Assembly (NCBI GenBank): GCA_963811105.1
Contig: CAWEPZ010000002.1
Location: 256,001 to 320,000, forward strand
DNA from: Candidatus Bathyarchaeota archaeon
GTDB taxonomy: Archaea; Thermoproteota; Bathyarchaeia; Bathyarchaeales; Bathycorpusculaceae
Direction: 5' to 3'
Length of the DNA stretch: 64,000 bases
Part shown: piece after piece, positions 1,046 through 36,346 of the stretch
How positions within the stretch are numbered: position 1 is the first letter of the stretch
How the letters are laid out: every line of letters starts with the position of its first letter
Made by a program: the position numbers and the translations under genes
The notes under the pieces: generated by a model
Databases searched by the model: none
Told to the model about the DNA's origin: nothing
Seen by the model: only the letters and a program-made list of their open reading frames with translations

Positions 1046-1089
1046 GACACAACATTCAAGTTATTTGCAATAAAAGACTTCTCGTAAAG

Positions 1090-1125
1090 GTTTCTTGACT
1101 AATTTTAGTCAAAGTTTCTTGACTA
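1090..1125. promoter_or_regulatory. Operator-like element: inverted repeat TTGACTAA-tt-TTAGTCAA plus direct repeat GTTTCTTGACTA
   Basis: Perfect 8-bp inverted repeat at 1095-1112; 12-bp direct repeat at 1090-1101 and 1114-1125; lies between divergent genes. Confidence 0.55.
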
Positions 1126-6041: not shown

Positions 6042-6671
6042 TTAGTGTCTGAAACGGTCATTTCGCCAAACATCCGCGCCGTCACTGTAACCTCGTCGCT
6101 CCCAAAAGCCCAACTCTTTGGCTCGAGTAAACCGCAAACGTACCAGCCACAACGCACTCTTATAGGCGTACTTACTTGGAACAATAAGGCGCACAGGAAA
6201 ACCCAACCCCTCATCCAGTGGTTTATCATTAAGCTTGTAAGCTAAGAGCACGTCTTCAACAGAGAGTTCCTCGCGGAAAAGCGAAGTGGTATACGAGTCA
6301 GCGCATTCGAAAGTTACGGCTCTAGCAACTTCTTTAGGTTTAACTAGCTTCTCAATCTCTCGGATGTGCACTCCTTCCCACTTGCAATCTAAAACGCTCC
6401 ACCCCTCAACACAGTGAAAATCGCTGGTTGAGACCGTTTTACCCAGCTTCATAAAGCCATTCCAGTTAAGCGTAACTGGGTTTTCAACTTCTCCATCAAC
6501 GGTTAATGTGTATGTTTCAAGTTTGAGCTTTGGATTAGTTGAGGTTATACCCGGATGGTCAGTACCCCAGCTTAAAATATGATCTGTAGCCCGTTGGTTT
6601 GGCGGCAGTTTTTTTTTCGTCGGCTGGTCAATAGACAAAGATTTAACCCAAACATAGAAGTGGGTTTGCAT
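6042..6671 (-). CDS. Molybdopterin-dependent oxidoreductase, sulfite-oxidase/MsrP-YuiH-like (true start may be slightly downstream)
   Basis: LPPNQ, DFHCVEGWS (Moco Cys), GFPVRLIVP, YKSALW, GFWERRGY. Confidence 0.85.
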   Translation of the reverse strand: MQTHFYVWVKSLSIDQPTKKKLPPNQRATDHILSWGTDHPGITSTNPKLKLETYTLTVDGEVENPVTLNWNGFMKLGKTVSTSDFHCVEGWSVLDCKWEGVHIREIEKLVKPKEVARAVTFECADSYTTSLFREELSVEDVLLAYKLNDKPLDEGLGFPVRLIVPSKYAYKSALWLVRLRFTRAKELGFWERRGYSDGADVWRNDRFRH

Positions 6672-6702
6672 AGAAAAAAAGTTTGCTTTTAGATAACTCA
6701 GT

Positions 6703-7806
6703 TTATTGGAAAAAACTTGTTAGTTGTTTTTGCCTTGGTTCTTTCTTGCTGAAACCTGAGACTTTGACGCCGACTCTTCGGACTTCAAGTTGGCTTTCAT
6801 TTAGGAATTTTTCATAGAGTTCTCTCACGTTGTTTTTGATTGTTTCCGTGTCTCTAGCAGGTTGAGCCAGCGTTGTTGACCTGGTTTTGCAGCTTAAATC
6901 GGTCATAACCATGTAAATTGCAACTTGCCTAAAACTCAAGTCTTTCTCCGATAATTCCTTTGATATGTCGGGAATTAGCTCGTCAGTTTTCTGCAGAATA
7001 AACGCTAAATCATGCGTATCCTGTTTTAGCGTGCCAATTCTGCTTATGGATTCTGCTTCGCCTGCTTCTTTAACGGGCTCGTTGTCGACTCCGTTGGAGG
7101 CGTTATGGAAGTAGATGCCCAGGATTTTTCCGAAAATTGCAGTTAGTCTTTGCACGTCAAAGTTGGCGAGGTCGCTGATGGTTTTAATGCCTAATGCTTC
7201 CATTACTACGCTTGTCTTGCGTCCGACACCTAGTAGGCGATTCACAGGCAGCGGCGACAAAAAGCACCCAACTTCGTCTGGGGTGATTATAGTTAATCCG
7301 TCGGGTTTTTGACTGTCGCACGCAATCTTGGCGACAAGCTTGTTAGGACCAACGCCTACAGTGAAGGAAATGCCCACTTCAGCTTTTACTTGGGCTTTAA
7401 TTTTTTGCGCATGCTCCTTTGCTTTTTCAAAGTTGCCTTCAACTTGTTCTGTGACATCCAAGTAAGCCTCGTCTATGCTAACCTGCTCAAAGCTGCTTGC
7501 ATAGCTGCGGAAAATCTGCATTATGCGGTCGCTTATTTGCTCGTAATACTCATGATCAACAGGCAGGAACACTTCTTCTGTGCCTTCTAACTTGTGCTTT
7601 GCCTGGAACAATGGCATACCTGATTTTACGCCGTATTTTCGTGCAACGTAGTTGCTGGTGCTAACCGCACCACTAATCTCTGTGCGCCCCGAGTAAACGC
7701 CGACTACAACTGGCTTATCTTTGATAGTTGGGTTGCGTAGCTCTTCGCATTGGGCAAAGAAATAATCGAAATCTGCCAACATTACAACCCGCTGCTGCAT
7801 TAGCAT
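6703..7806 (-). CDS. dinB: Y-family DNA polymerase IV (Dpo4/DinB)
   Basis: DFDYFFAQ, NYVARKYGVKSGMP, SIDEAY, NKLVAKIA, KPDG, RRVGV. Confidence 0.95.
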   Translation of the reverse strand: MLMQQRVVMLADFDYFFAQCEELRNPTIKDKPVVVGVYSGRTEISGAVSTSNYVARKYGVKSGMPLFQAKHKLEGTEEVFLPVDHEYYEQISDRIMQIFRSYASSFEQVSIDEAYLDVTEQVEGNFEKAKEHAQKIKAQVKAEVGISFTVGVGPNKLVAKIACDSQKPDGLTIITPDEVGCFLSPLPVNRLLGVGRKTSVVMEALGIKTISDLANFDVQRLTAIFGKILGIYFHNASNGVDNEPVKEAGEAESISRIGTLKQDTHDLAFILQKTDELIPDISKELSEKDLSFRQVAIYMVMTDLSCKTRSTTLAQPARDTETIKNNVRELYEKFLNESQLEVRRVGVKVSGFSKKEPRQKQLTSFFQ

Positions 7807-8669
7807 TCGCCTCTTGCTTTAGGCATAAGCCATGACCCGTCACATGAAGCCGTATTAAGTTGCGCTAAGCCTTCTCGGCAAACCCCAAACTTCAACCCCC
7901 TCGCTTCAGCAAGGTCACGTACTCCTTTCAGAAGCTTGTACCTTAGGTCTTTAGGCATAAGTGTGCTACCGCCGACTTTTTCTCCCTGCTGAAAAAAGAG
8001 CGGCTTAAGTTTTTCTGCAACTTGAGGCAAGGCTTGGCTAAGCCGAGCCCAATTGTCTGCTTTAGCTTTGTACGTTGAAGCCGTTACATGTTTAACTCCA
8101 ATGCTTGCTAAATAAGCGATAAGTTTTTGCGGTTGATCGTTTACTGAGGGAATGATTGGGTCTATCCGGACCGAGACAGGGATGCCTGCCTTGACTAAAT
8201 CCTGTGCAGCTCTTAGCCTCTGAGAAGGCGAAGGTGCCAATGGTTCGATAAGCCTTGCAATATTATCGTCGTCAGTTGTAATGGTTAATGCTACAGTTGA
8301 TGGAATTTTGCTCAGTAAGTCGTCGTCTCTGGCTACAAGGTTGCTTTTGGTGATTATTTGGATTTTGCAGTTGCATCCCGAGAATATTTCAAGGCATCGT
8401 CGCGTAAAGCCTTCTGACACTTCGGTACGCGGATATGGGTCAGATGAGTTGGCTATTGAAATTGTTTCACCGTTGAGTTTTGACGCTTCCCGTTTAAGTT
8501 GGGCAAGCAGGTCTTTTTTGGGTCTGCAGTCGGTAAAGTTTGGGATGTAGCTGGATGCGTAACAGTAGATGCATCGGTGGTCGCATCCTGTATACGGGTT
8601 AAATGTCAGCTTCGCTGGGCAAGTGCAAAGGCCAGAACGCCAAGGGTCAAAGCTTGTAATTAGGGGCAC
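7800..8669 (-). CDS. Radical SAM protein, SplB/spore-photoproduct-lyase-like family
   Basis: NPYTGCDHRCIYCYA (CxxxCxxC), SDPYP, ITKS, IEPLAP; its 3' end overlaps the dinB start. Confidence 0.88.
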   Translation of the reverse strand: MPLITSFDPWRSGLCTCPAKLTFNPYTGCDHRCIYCYASSYIPNFTDCRPKKDLLAQLKREASKLNGETISIANSSDPYPRTEVSEGFTRRCLEIFSGCNCKIQIITKSNLVARDDDLLSKIPSTVALTITTDDDNIARLIEPLAPSPSQRLRAAQDLVKAGIPVSVRIDPIIPSVNDQPQKLIAYLASIGVKHVTASTYKAKADNWARLSQALPQVAEKLKPLFFQQGEKVGGSTLMPKDLRYKLLKGVRDLAEARGLKFGVCREGLAQLNTASCDGSWLMPKARGEC

Positions 8670-8681
8670 AATTTCACTAAG

Positions 8682-8702
8682 CTATCTATGTGGGCTAGAT
8701 AG
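8682..8702. promoter_or_regulatory. Palindromic operator candidate CTATCTA-N7-TAGATAG in the radical SAM-dinB promoter
   Basis: Perfect 7-bp inverted repeat between a minus-strand BRE/TATA-like GAAAGTTTTTGT and the start codon at 8669. Confidence 0.5.
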
Positions 8703-8750
8703 ACAAAAACTTTCGCAATTAAAAAAGGGGAATTTGGGGCTTATTTATCC

Positions 8751-9050
8751 AAAAAAGAGGAGAATTTGTGCACCTGCGTTCTGCATTTGCAGAAGAGATA
8801 ACCAGTTACTACTGGTGGGAGTGCAAATAACGCTCGATCAAGCAAATGTCTTGTGCTGAAGCAGGAACGTTCTGTTGCGAGCCCGACTGGAGGATCGGCA
8901 AGTGACGATACCCCATTGCCTGACGGGGATTGAGCGAGATGAACTTGAGGTATCGTCAATCTTAAAACGCTTAACGGTCGATAGTGGCACCTCCAGATAT
9001 CTTTTGGCACTTATGTTACCCGCAATTTCCGCTCTGTATGCACACAAATG
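8751..9050 (-). ncRNA. Candidate structured ncRNA A (~290 nt), unknown family
   Basis: Nested helices: 9038-9044/8767-8773, 9015-9024/8822-8831, 8990-8996/8887-8893, 8946-8958/8903-8915, 8878-8882/8832-8836; hairpins 8801-8816 and 8779-8794. G-U pairs in the long helices favour the minus strand; U6 tract at the 3' end. Confidence 0.6.
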
Positions 9051-9219
9051 CCTGCCCTTTTAGAGTGCAAAAGCGTTTTCGTCAAGAAAAAACTGAATGA
9101 GGTTAGTCAAGGTTTGAGAACGTTTGAAAAGTCTTCTCTTACTCGCATAGAATGCCGTTAACCTTAAAGTACGCTTTGTTTAGAAAGCATTAAATTCCTA
9201 TCCTTTTCACTACTAACAC

Positions 9220-10627
9220 ATGAAAAATTTTCTCGGCTACCTCAAAGCGGAAAACATGAGCTTATTTACGGATTTTTATGAGTTAACCATGTGCGCAAGC
9301 TACTTTGACAACAAAAATTTTGAGCCTGCCACATTTGACTTATTCATTAGGCGGCTGCCAGAAAACCGCTCCTACTTCCTGTTTGCCGGGTTAGAAGAAG
9401 CCTTGCAGTACCTGCAAAACATGAAGTTTACTGAGGAGCAGCTGGGTTACCTTAAAAAGCAGGGATTCAACCGGACTTTTCTCGATTATTTACGTAGTTT
9501 TAAGTTTTCAGGTGAGGTTTGGGCTGTTCCTGAGGGATCTGTGGTTTTTCCAAATGAACCCTTAATTCGTGTTACAGCGCCGATAATTGAGGCTCAGCTA
9601 ATTGAAACTTTTTTGCTAAACACAGTTAACCTGCAAACTATGATTGCCACAAAAGCCTCGAGGGTAGTGCATGCAGCTAAGGGAAAATCGGTAATTGAAT
9701 TCGGCTTGCGAAGAGAACACGGCATTGACGCTGGAATGAAAGTGGCGCGATAGCAGTTACATTGCAGGATGCCAAGGAACCAGCAACGTTTTGGCAGGGC
9801 AAGCCTATGGCATTCCAGTTTTCGGAACCATGGCACACTCGTTTATCATGTCCTATCCAAAAGAAATTGACGCATTTCGAGCTTTCGCCAAAACTTTCCC
9901 AAACAAGTCAACACTTCTTATAGACACTTACGACGACATTTCAGGCGCAGAAAAAGCTGGAGTTGTAGCTAAAGAGCTTGAGTCTAAAGGCTTTAGGCTG
10001 GGGGGAGTGCGCTTGGACAGTGGCGATTTGGGCGAGGACAGCAAAAAAGTTCGAAAAATTCTTGATGATCAAGGCTTAGATTATGTGAAAATTTTTGCAA
10101 GCGGTGACCTAGATGAATTCAGAATAGACGAACTTCTCACTAATGGCGCAAAAATTAACTCTTTTGGGGTAGGAACAAAAATGGGCACCTCAGCGGATAG
10201 ACCTTATTTAGATGTGATTTACAAACTCTGCGAAACCATGGCTGAAGATGGAAGCTTCTCGCCAATAATGAAGTTAAGCAAAGACAAAGTCACTTTGCCA
10301 GGTTTAAAACAAGTTTACCGCGTTAAAAGTGAAATCGGCTATTTTGAAAAAGATATCATTGCTCTGGCTAATGAAAAAATGCAAGGTGAACCATTGCTTG
10401 TTATGGTCATGGAGAAGGGCAAAATAATCTATAAACTTCCCTCGCTTGAAGAAATTCGCCTTACCGCTGCCGAGAACCTTAGTAAACTTCCAGACAGATA
10501 CAAAGCATTAACTGGCGCACCCGTCTATCCCGTAGAATTAAGCCAAAACTTGCAGAAACTAGTCAAAACCTTGAGGCGTGATTTAACCAAAAATGAAATA
10601 AACCCTACCGTTGGCACTTCTGCTTAA
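9220..10627 (+). pseudogene. pncB: Nicotinate phosphoribosyltransferase, split by one extra base near 9751 (pseudogene, recoding or assembly error)
   Basis: FTDFYELTM, EFGLRR, GTMAHS, LIDTYD, RLDSGD, GVGT. Removing one base joins ...VAR to SSYIAGCQGTSNVLAG; span is 3n+1. Confidence 0.85.
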
Positions 10628-24363: not shown

Positions 24364-24441
24364 TGGCGGGCCCGACGGGAATTGAACCCGCGACCTACGG
24401 ATTAAGAGTCCGCCGCTCTAGCCTGACTGAGCCACGGGCCC
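24364..24441 (-). tRNA. tRNA-Lys (anticodon CTT), CCA encoded, no intron
   Basis: GGGCCCG acceptor stem, anticodon arm GCGGA-CTCTTAA-TCCGT, GGTTCAATTCC T-arm, 3' GCCA. Confidence 0.97.
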
Positions 24442-36027: not shown

Positions 36028-36346
36028 GGCGGTGGATCTTAGGCGGTGGGGTAGGGGTCCATTGTACCGTAAACCCTCTATACGACGGGCCGACATCTGC
36101 GGATGAGGCGCCGAAGGCCGTTTGGATCTTCATTTCCGAAACATTGACTATCCGTCCTTTGGGGCTGGCGGTCAATGGGCAGCTTCCGTAGGGGAGTTGT
36201 TTCATTGTTCACCAGGCGAACCCGGCTAGGCTCGGGAGAGAGCAACCTAAGTTTGGACGTTATGCGCTCAAGGGGGTGCGGGTAAGAGCGTAGGGTTTGA
36301 GGTTTCCAGGCGGAGTCTGGGCGTCAAACCGCAGTGGTCCACCGCT
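36028..36346 (+). ncRNA. ffs: Archaeal signal recognition particle (7S) RNA
   Basis: Terminal helix GGCGGTGGATC/GGTCCACCGCT, Alu-domain TGTA, helix 6 with GTAG loop, helix 8 TAGG-CTC-GGGA-GAG-AGCAA; TTTTAAA box ~25 nt upstream. Confidence 0.92.

Follow-up and report, generated by a model that had tools for sequence, protein, structure and literature searches.

SgrS/SgrT and RNAIII are bacterial small RNAs that are dual-function or derived from mRNAs. The archaeal gene cassette described here may, by analogy, be placed next to them, as one transcript would combine a small ORF with a conserved structure, and some lineages keep the RNA part only. Another resemblance is to small orphan ORFs that encode exported or membrane-anchored proteins, and to pseudogenes of such ORFs: the cassette has a promoter-like region and a ribosome-binding site of its own and spans about 100 codons, its intact members have a hydrophobic N-terminus, and it is patchily distributed and diverges fast. 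Unlike these, the cassette contains an internal RNA hairpin that is better conserved than the protein, and it is without a Pfam or NCBIfam family; export of the cassette protein is predicted from hydrophobicity only. With riboswitches and cis leaders it shares the presence of a conserved structure and a location ahead of an operon that is read from the same strand. It differs from them in that this structure is a single helix, in that oligo-T runs and a separate conserved promoter region intervene before the operon, and in its occurrence in 7 of 120 genomes, mostly operon carriers. Finally, SplB-like radical SAM genes neighbour mutagenic polymerases in bacterial SOS-linked systems (Biol Direct 2013, PMC3765255). 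The operon downstream of our cassette likewise pairs a radical SAM enzyme with a Y-family polymerase, whereas that paper describes no upstream RNA or small ORF, and our cassette is linked to the operon by position only.

The window, a stretch of 64,000 nt, belongs to a metagenome-assembled genome (MAG) of the Bathyarchaeia. The candidate element sits inside a spacer of 550 nt (8670-9219), between a radical SAM gene on the minus strand (7800-8669) and a nicotinate phosphoribosyltransferase (NAPRTase) gene that starts at 9220 on the plus strand. Further along the minus strand follow the genes for a Y-family polymerase (DinB; 6703-7806) and an MsrP-like molybdopterin oxidoreductase (6042-6671). 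In NCBIfam, the radical SAM protein comes closest to the PA0069 and Rv2578c families, in both cases below cut-off, and it also gives a weak match to spore photoproduct lyase. The order of these three genes (6042-8669) is kept in most of the 80 Bathyarchaeia loci that we compared; these and further loci are designated by L numbers below. In 13 of the 80, the neighbour on the divergent side is NAPRTase, and the spacer between it and the radical SAM gene ranges from 129 to 1540 nt. This spacer is a variable spot in which relatives carry unrelated ORFs, namely one of 289 aa (L015:1920-3000), two of 222 and 139 aa (L033:1461-3000), a Cys-rich one of 143 aa (L075:1441-2525) and one of 58 aa (L065:2543-3000). 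The part nearest the radical SAM gene (8671-8735, minus strand), with a second T-run at 8721-8726, lies outside the cassette; BLAST found it conserved in radical SAM loci without the element, including L070, L031 and L065.

Two features of the NAPRTase side of the spacer should be mentioned. A 1-nt insertion near 9745-9760 divides the NAPRTase gene of the window into ORFs at 9220-9753 and 9791-10627; all eight relatives examined are uninterrupted at this site. Either the frameshift is real or the assembly went wrong at a polymorphic site and, given the eight uninterrupted relatives, errors of assembly may lie behind single-base indels in these MAGs. Separately, a segment of 69 nt (9100-9168) is 89-91% identical to the sequences immediately 5′ of a pair of paralogous ORFs, on contigs C11 and C6, which are 495 aa long and run off the locus end. 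The segment is missing from L007. It contains a single operator palindrome and is directed at NAPRTase, and this suggests a swap of promoter segments in the window's lineage.

Upstream of the element lies a promoter-like module (9065-9118, minus strand), with coordinates read by hand. It consists of degenerate palindromic operator copies at about 9103-9118 and 9075-9098 and a TATA-like box at 9065-9074. An nhmmer profile of this stretch found 16 further places in the same genome at E ≤ 0.1, and the module precedes genes in 23 Bathyarchaeia loci, where a short leader comes next and then a purine-rich motif for ribosome binding and an ATG. Of the 16 downstream ORFs in the window's own genome that reach 100 aa, 15 are strongly hydrophobic at the N-terminus. 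The recurrent form of the module is strongly conserved and has two or three copies of a ~20-bp palindrome followed by a TATA box; one copy lies at about window position 1070-1125 (C2:257122, minus strand), and others are on contigs C2, C9, C11, C1 and C6. Taken together, the recurrent module looks like the mark of a regulon of surface or exported proteins. As judged by eye, the copy in front of the element has a G in its TATA-like box where the listed Bathyarchaeia copies have A, and its operator half-sites are degenerate.

The module is placed some 25-30 nt upstream of the inferred 5′ end of the transcript, and an oligo-T tract stands at its 3′ end. The tract, U6 in the RNA (8751-8756, minus strand), overlaps the last codons of the ORF described below and is a likely terminator; oligo-T terminates transcription in archaea. 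A tract of this type is also found 3′ of the stop codon in L012 and L007. A preliminary description had taken the interval for an independent RNA or a switch-like leader, and with the promoter-like module and the oligo-T tract it does give the impression of being transcribed separately, from the same strand as the repair genes. These promoter and terminator assignments, like that of export, are drawn from sequence patterns and from general knowledge of archaeal transcription.

We searched the region for known RNA families with the covariance models of Rfam (release 15). Over 8500-9300, no match fell on the element, either by gathering score or at E values up to 10; the sole low-score match in this interval (11.5 bits, an lncRNA model) lies outside the element and is attributed to chance. 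The homologues L191, L102 and L100 gave no Rfam match either. The RNase P RNA of the genome is on another contig, C9 (176.6 bits), and an archaeal SRP RNA was found at window position 36030-36344 (158.5 bits). Together with one tRNA (24367-24441, 69.8 bits), this SRP RNA makes up the window's only Rfam matches. The proposals that the region is neither SRP RNA, RNase P RNA nor tRNA, and that it is novel with respect to Rfam, were thus borne out. In text searches on small or non-coding RNA of Bathyarchaeia/Bathyarchaeota and on radical SAM-DinB operons in archaea, we came across no description of the element, and no paper on small RNAs of this lineage. By eye, C/D-box and H/ACA RNAs, K-turns, integron attC sites, programmed frameshifting and type I toxin-antitoxin systems were rejected, as we saw neither their defining motifs nor a multi-copy context.

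The preliminary description had proposed that 8751-9050 encodes a multi-junction RNA of ~290 nt with at least seven helices. All the helices listed are indeed present on the minus strand (about 9050 to 8751), the strand that also carries the repair genes, as is the U6 run, and in the window H1 to H7 pair at 7/7, 10/10, 7/7, 12/12, 5/5, 6/6 and 5/5 positions. The fold as a whole is nevertheless unremarkable. For the 320-nt minus strand we calculated −89.0 kcal/mol against −83.45 ± 5.14 for shuffled controls (z = −1.08), and 11 of 100 dinucleotide shuffles fold as well or better; the plus strand has z = −0.61. Trimmed to 294 nt, the RNA scores z = −1.55 in the sense and −0.22 in the antisense direction.

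Homologues were then compared. In L012 and L102, which are distant long forms, H1 retains 4/7 and 4/7 pairs, H2 5/10 and 5/10, H3 5/7 and 2/7, H5 2/6 and 1/6, H6 1/5 and 4/5, and H7 1/5 and 0/5, so that H2, H3, H5, H6 and H7 are mostly unpaired at the aligned columns. Hairpin H4 alone holds, with 9/12 and 11/12 pairs. In L007, which is 96% identical to the window, H1, H2, H5 and H7 lose one pair each, uncompensated, and the short forms L016, L009 and L191 are without the entire 3′ half. In a consensus calculated with RNAalifold from five homologues, nothing remained except a terminal helix, one small hairpin and the long one. The architecture of seven helices does not survive this comparison: covariation among homologues upheld one helix of the seven, the hairpin, while the terminal helix is conserved in sequence only and the remaining five are not kept in L012 and L102.

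The terminal helix, the 7-bp helix of the preliminary description, deserves separate treatment. Its 5′ strand (9038-9049, minus strand), near the inferred transcript start, is conserved in sequence in L007, L012 and L102 with no covariation, and its register differs in the window owing to a 2-nt insertion. The 3′ strand (8764-8774, minus strand) is invariant in the window, L007, L012 and L102, though the reading frame over this block differs between lineages. Since the four long forms show zero covariation in this helix, we regard its pairing as possible only.

The overlapping ORFs had been dismissed as spurious, which is wrong for one of them. The ORF of 89 codons at 8741-9010 (minus strand; identified by tblastn) is an apparently eroded member of a small orphan ORF family and a full-length homologue of the proteins from L012 and L102 and of two metagenome proteins, in all four of which the ORF is intact. 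It begins with GTG (9008-9010) behind a degenerate ribosome-binding region (9015-9024; together 9008-9024, minus strand), which is at the same time the 5′ strand of the proposed 10-bp helix. The aligned positions of L012 and L102 hold an ATG and a purine-rich motif that resembles a Shine-Dalgarno sequence. Their stop-free frames run for 112 and 96 codons, respectively, with start and end shared, and the two remaining frames contain 5-13 stops. When 5.8 billion proteins were searched with an alignment, four were returned, these being the calls at L012 and L102 and the two metagenome proteins, P0005 and P0006 (109 and 95 aa). By tblastn, P0005 aligns to a single frame of the window over 109 aa and is 45% identical to it (E = 4.2e-15); a stop codon immediately precedes the GTG.

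For the four family proteins, no Pfam or NCBIfam family was found, and a scan of metagenome contigs with the protein pattern of alignment A6 yielded 95 pattern matches and 0 relatives. The family protein is poorly conserved except for its N-terminus, a short Ser/Pro motif and its C-terminus. The case for coding therefore draws on the open frames, the start context and the four to five members.

In the window, the start of the ORF departs from that of the family: it has GTG in place of ATG, a weakened ribosome-binding motif, and its hydrophobic segment is gone. The maximum of the N-terminal KD profile is 1.05 in the window versus 2.73, 2.90 and 2.72 in the set of P0005, P0006 and L102, and 1.55 in L012. 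The middle part of P0005 matches the window's other frame, and the window and L007 have in common a 2-nt gap relative to L012 and L102. Being common to two independent assemblies, these internal frame changes are more likely real. In L007, the ORF is broken by two 1-nt insertions after codon 6.

L007, the nearest relative, also allowed the rate of change to be gauged, its radical SAM protein being 99% identical to that of the window. Over the body of the element, the two differ by 3.9% (12 mismatches in 308 aligned bases, plus two 1-nt indels; 310 columns). The corresponding divergence at third codon positions of the neighbours is 3.8% for the radical SAM gene, 5.1% for the N-terminal part of NAPRTase and 4.8% for the molybdopterin oxidoreductase, which suggests that the body diverges at about the neutral rate; dinB stands at 16.8%. 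Within the ORF, a hand count gave one synonymous and seven non-synonymous codon changes. With this 1:7 ratio and the broken frame of L007 (indels in MAGs can be errors), purifying selection on the frame of the ORF is not supported. The window ORF appears to be decaying, and its transcript may consequently now be effectively non-coding; still open over 89 codons, the ORF could be functional.

A different picture emerged for the hairpin (8903-8958, minus strand; alignment A8), in which 8947-8958 pairs with 8903-8914. This stem of 12 bp can be extended to 15 positions and closes a pyrimidine-rich loop of ~32 nt. In alignment A8, with eight sequences and 15 pairs, 93.3% of the 120 cells are paired, versus 29-57% in slid controls. 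Eight of the 15 pairs have changed on both sides, a number that one in 500 shuffles reaches, and the covariation score was reached by none of the 500. Wobble cells are G-U in 10 cases and A-C in 2, an excess that favours an RNA on the minus strand. The loop sequence is loosely conserved. Between the window and L007, the hairpin has 0 changes in 56 nt where about two are expected, a divergence too low to test constraint.

The hairpin is retained in L016, L009 and L191, where the ORF is without a start codon or stops early, and in L100, where the ancestral ORF is not intact; on our reading of the L100 sequence, a possible ORF of 53 codons runs through the hairpin from an upstream ATG. Since the hairpin persists where the ORF has been destroyed, it is probably a functional RNA element. 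Between L016 and L009, identity is 94% over a core of ~100 nt versus roughly 40-60% in the weakly conserved flanks, as estimated by eye, and their sense strands fold with z = −3.76 and −4.05, respectively, with antisense values of about 0. In intact ORFs, moreover, changes in the hairpin arms force coordinated changes of amino acids, which makes the RNA structure appear the more constrained feature. On its 5′ side, the L016-type hairpin is preceded by a motif whose reverse complement is similar to a ribosome-binding and start region that is common in that genome; the short ORFs on the opposite strand are not conserved.

The distribution of the element was established in several searches. With a query of 401 nt, a DNA search of 40 relatives gave only a weak match of 41 nt, in the flank, and because it was fruitless we fetched the 80 loci around homologues of the radical SAM protein. 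A profile found the body in four of them (L007, L012, L016 and L009). Three more came from a covariance model of the hairpin, namely L100 and L102, which belong to the genus, and L191, a metagenome sequence. With the improved model, the hairpin was present in 7 of 120 genomes of the genus, once per carrier; of 150 further genomes sampled within the order, 12 of which belong to the same genus, none had it. All copies lie directly upstream of the radical SAM gene on the same strand. The body is single-copy in its own genome, as is the hairpin in four relatives. Among metagenome contigs, the DNA pattern of the hairpin picked out 62 stretches, of which the covariance model kept L174 and L191, the others being low-scoring; L191 is new, and L174 appears, by eye, identical to L016 over the intergenic spacer.

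Several further matches were rejected or weak. Those of the covariance model in L101 and L103 were rejected as internal to ORFs (522 and 429 aa, respectively), two matches to viral contigs, L245 and L246, were weak (39 aa), and the match in L246, antisense in an ORF of 652 aa, was judged spurious. Phage records gave zero matches.

In a radical SAM plus dinB tree, all eight carriers fall into one clade, together with six non-carriers. The tree was calculated at fast settings, has no support values and was rooted at the midpoint; its 81 rows cover 77 of the 80 loci (L010, L062 and L074 were too short and were left out) plus the window, L191, L102 and L100. The pattern of carriers in it fits a single gain with later losses, in a comparison that spans only about six independent lineages. 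The genome of L009 (G042) contains at least seven copies of a ~115-nt repeat with a long terminal stem and an internal hairpin (L166-L172, L091), followed in one orientation by a T-run. Three copies tested had no Rfam match, and no copy is present in the window's genome; this repeat may be a family of small RNAs or MITE-like.

These observations bear on several ways of explaining the interval. The element might be a regulatory RNA of ~100-200 nt centred on the hairpin, either a trans-acting small RNA with a C-rich loop or a cis element on the operon, with the ORFs incidental or the RNA dual-function. In its favour, the hairpin is the only part kept in all eight sequences, including the ORF-less L016, L009 and L191, the coordinated arm changes impose amino-acid changes on intact ORFs, the 3′ terminal block is invariant despite lineage-specific frames, and the element always adjoins the same operon upstream in constant orientation. 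However, the loop sequence is conserved only loosely, no complementarity to the radical SAM start region was seen by eye, the operon has its own promoter region and stands without the element in 113 of the genus's 120 genomes, and two deep lineages retain ORFs of more than 95 codons with proper start context, so that we consider this explanation doubtful. We think it unlikely that the hairpin and its flanks form the core of a lineage-specific Bathyarchaeia regulatory RNA that was exapted from the mRNA of a decaying exported protein, stays under purifying selection after loss of the ORF and acts on, or insulates, the radical SAM-DinB operon. The switch-like leader suggested in the preliminary description also seems unlikely, because the proximal promoter region of the operon is conserved in loci free of the element, and the element is rare (7 of 120 genomes). 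Between the element and the operon lie two T-runs and this proximal region. The preliminary description had itself called the link to the repair genes positional only, and so we find it.

Conversely, the ORF could be a live gene whose 89 codons are translated from the GTG into a functional small protein, the hairpin being a plain feature of its mRNA. That the frame is open over its full length, with P0005 as a homologue that shares the C-terminal frame, and that an oligo-T tract stands right at its end, would agree with this. It is hard to reconcile with the GTG start, the weakened ribosome-binding motif and the lost hydrophobic N-terminus, with a middle that is out of frame relative to P0005 and L102, with the break after codon 6 in L007, and with one synonymous to seven non-synonymous codon changes between the window and L007, and we hold a live gene to be very unlikely. 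More improbable still is the independent RNA of ~290 nt with seven helices. The helices can all be drawn in the window, the region is flanked by a promoter-like module and U6, and three G-U pairs favour the minus strand; against this stand the z values of −1.08 and −1.55, the loss of five helices in L012 and L102, the uncompensated hits to four in L007, the RNAalifold consensus of five homologues with its terminal helix and small and long hairpins only, and short-form relatives without the whole 3′ half. The inverted repeat might, lastly, work as DNA, as a protein-binding palindrome, or the end of a recombining or mobile element, and a spacer of 129 to 1540 nt with different inserts in different relatives is the kind of place where this could be imagined. 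The wobble pairs are nonetheless one-stranded (10 G-U versus 2 A-C cells), the element is single-copy in its own genome and in four relatives, at odds with a MITE or mobile repeat, phage records are without a match and, of the two weak viral-contig matches, that in L246 is antisense in a 652-aa ORF, and the carriers form one clade, consistent with vertical descent. Single-copy occurrence, restriction to one clade and strand bias thus render a mobile or DNA-level element highly unlikely.

We favour, with a probability of roughly 60%, the explanation that the interval would be the transcribed body of a small accessory gene cassette, inherited within one subclade of a Bathyarchaeia genus, which is eroding while its embedded hairpin is selected and acts in cis. 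The cassette lies in tandem upstream of the radical SAM-DinB operon. It would begin with a promoter of two palindromic operators and a TATA box, of the type reused before proteins with a hydrophobic N-terminus, followed by a leader of ~40 nt with a ribosome-binding site and by an ORF of 90-110 codons for a small, Ser/Pro-rich protein with a hydrophobic N-terminus. A putative oligo-T terminator would end the unit, and beyond it the radical SAM-DinB operon would have a promoter region to itself. In the window, erosion would have mutated the TATA box and the operators, turned ATG into GTG, removed the hydrophobic segment and changed the frame internally. The anatomy of the cassette, its homology, the signs of its decay and the covariation of the hairpin are matters of observation.

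Of the cassette's parts, the hairpin would be the one that is selected, maintained by compensatory changes and, at low certainty, acting in cis on the cassette transcript. It might contribute to stability or processing, or limit read-through into the downstream operon. We infer transcription, the function of promoter and terminator and any role of the hairpin from the sequence.

A large novel structured RNA beside repair genes would be notable, and the evidence is against it. Most of the proposed RNA of 290 bases appears to be what is left of a small archaeal gene, specific to its lineage and in decay, in which evolution keeps one helix, and it provides a worked example of how a plausible series of helices can arise within the remnant of a small gene. 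As a by-product, the conserved double-palindrome promoter module offers a handle on gene regulation in Bathyarchaeia. In this uncultured archaeal lineage, one covarying hairpin outlives its host ORF and is a candidate cis-acting RNA element.
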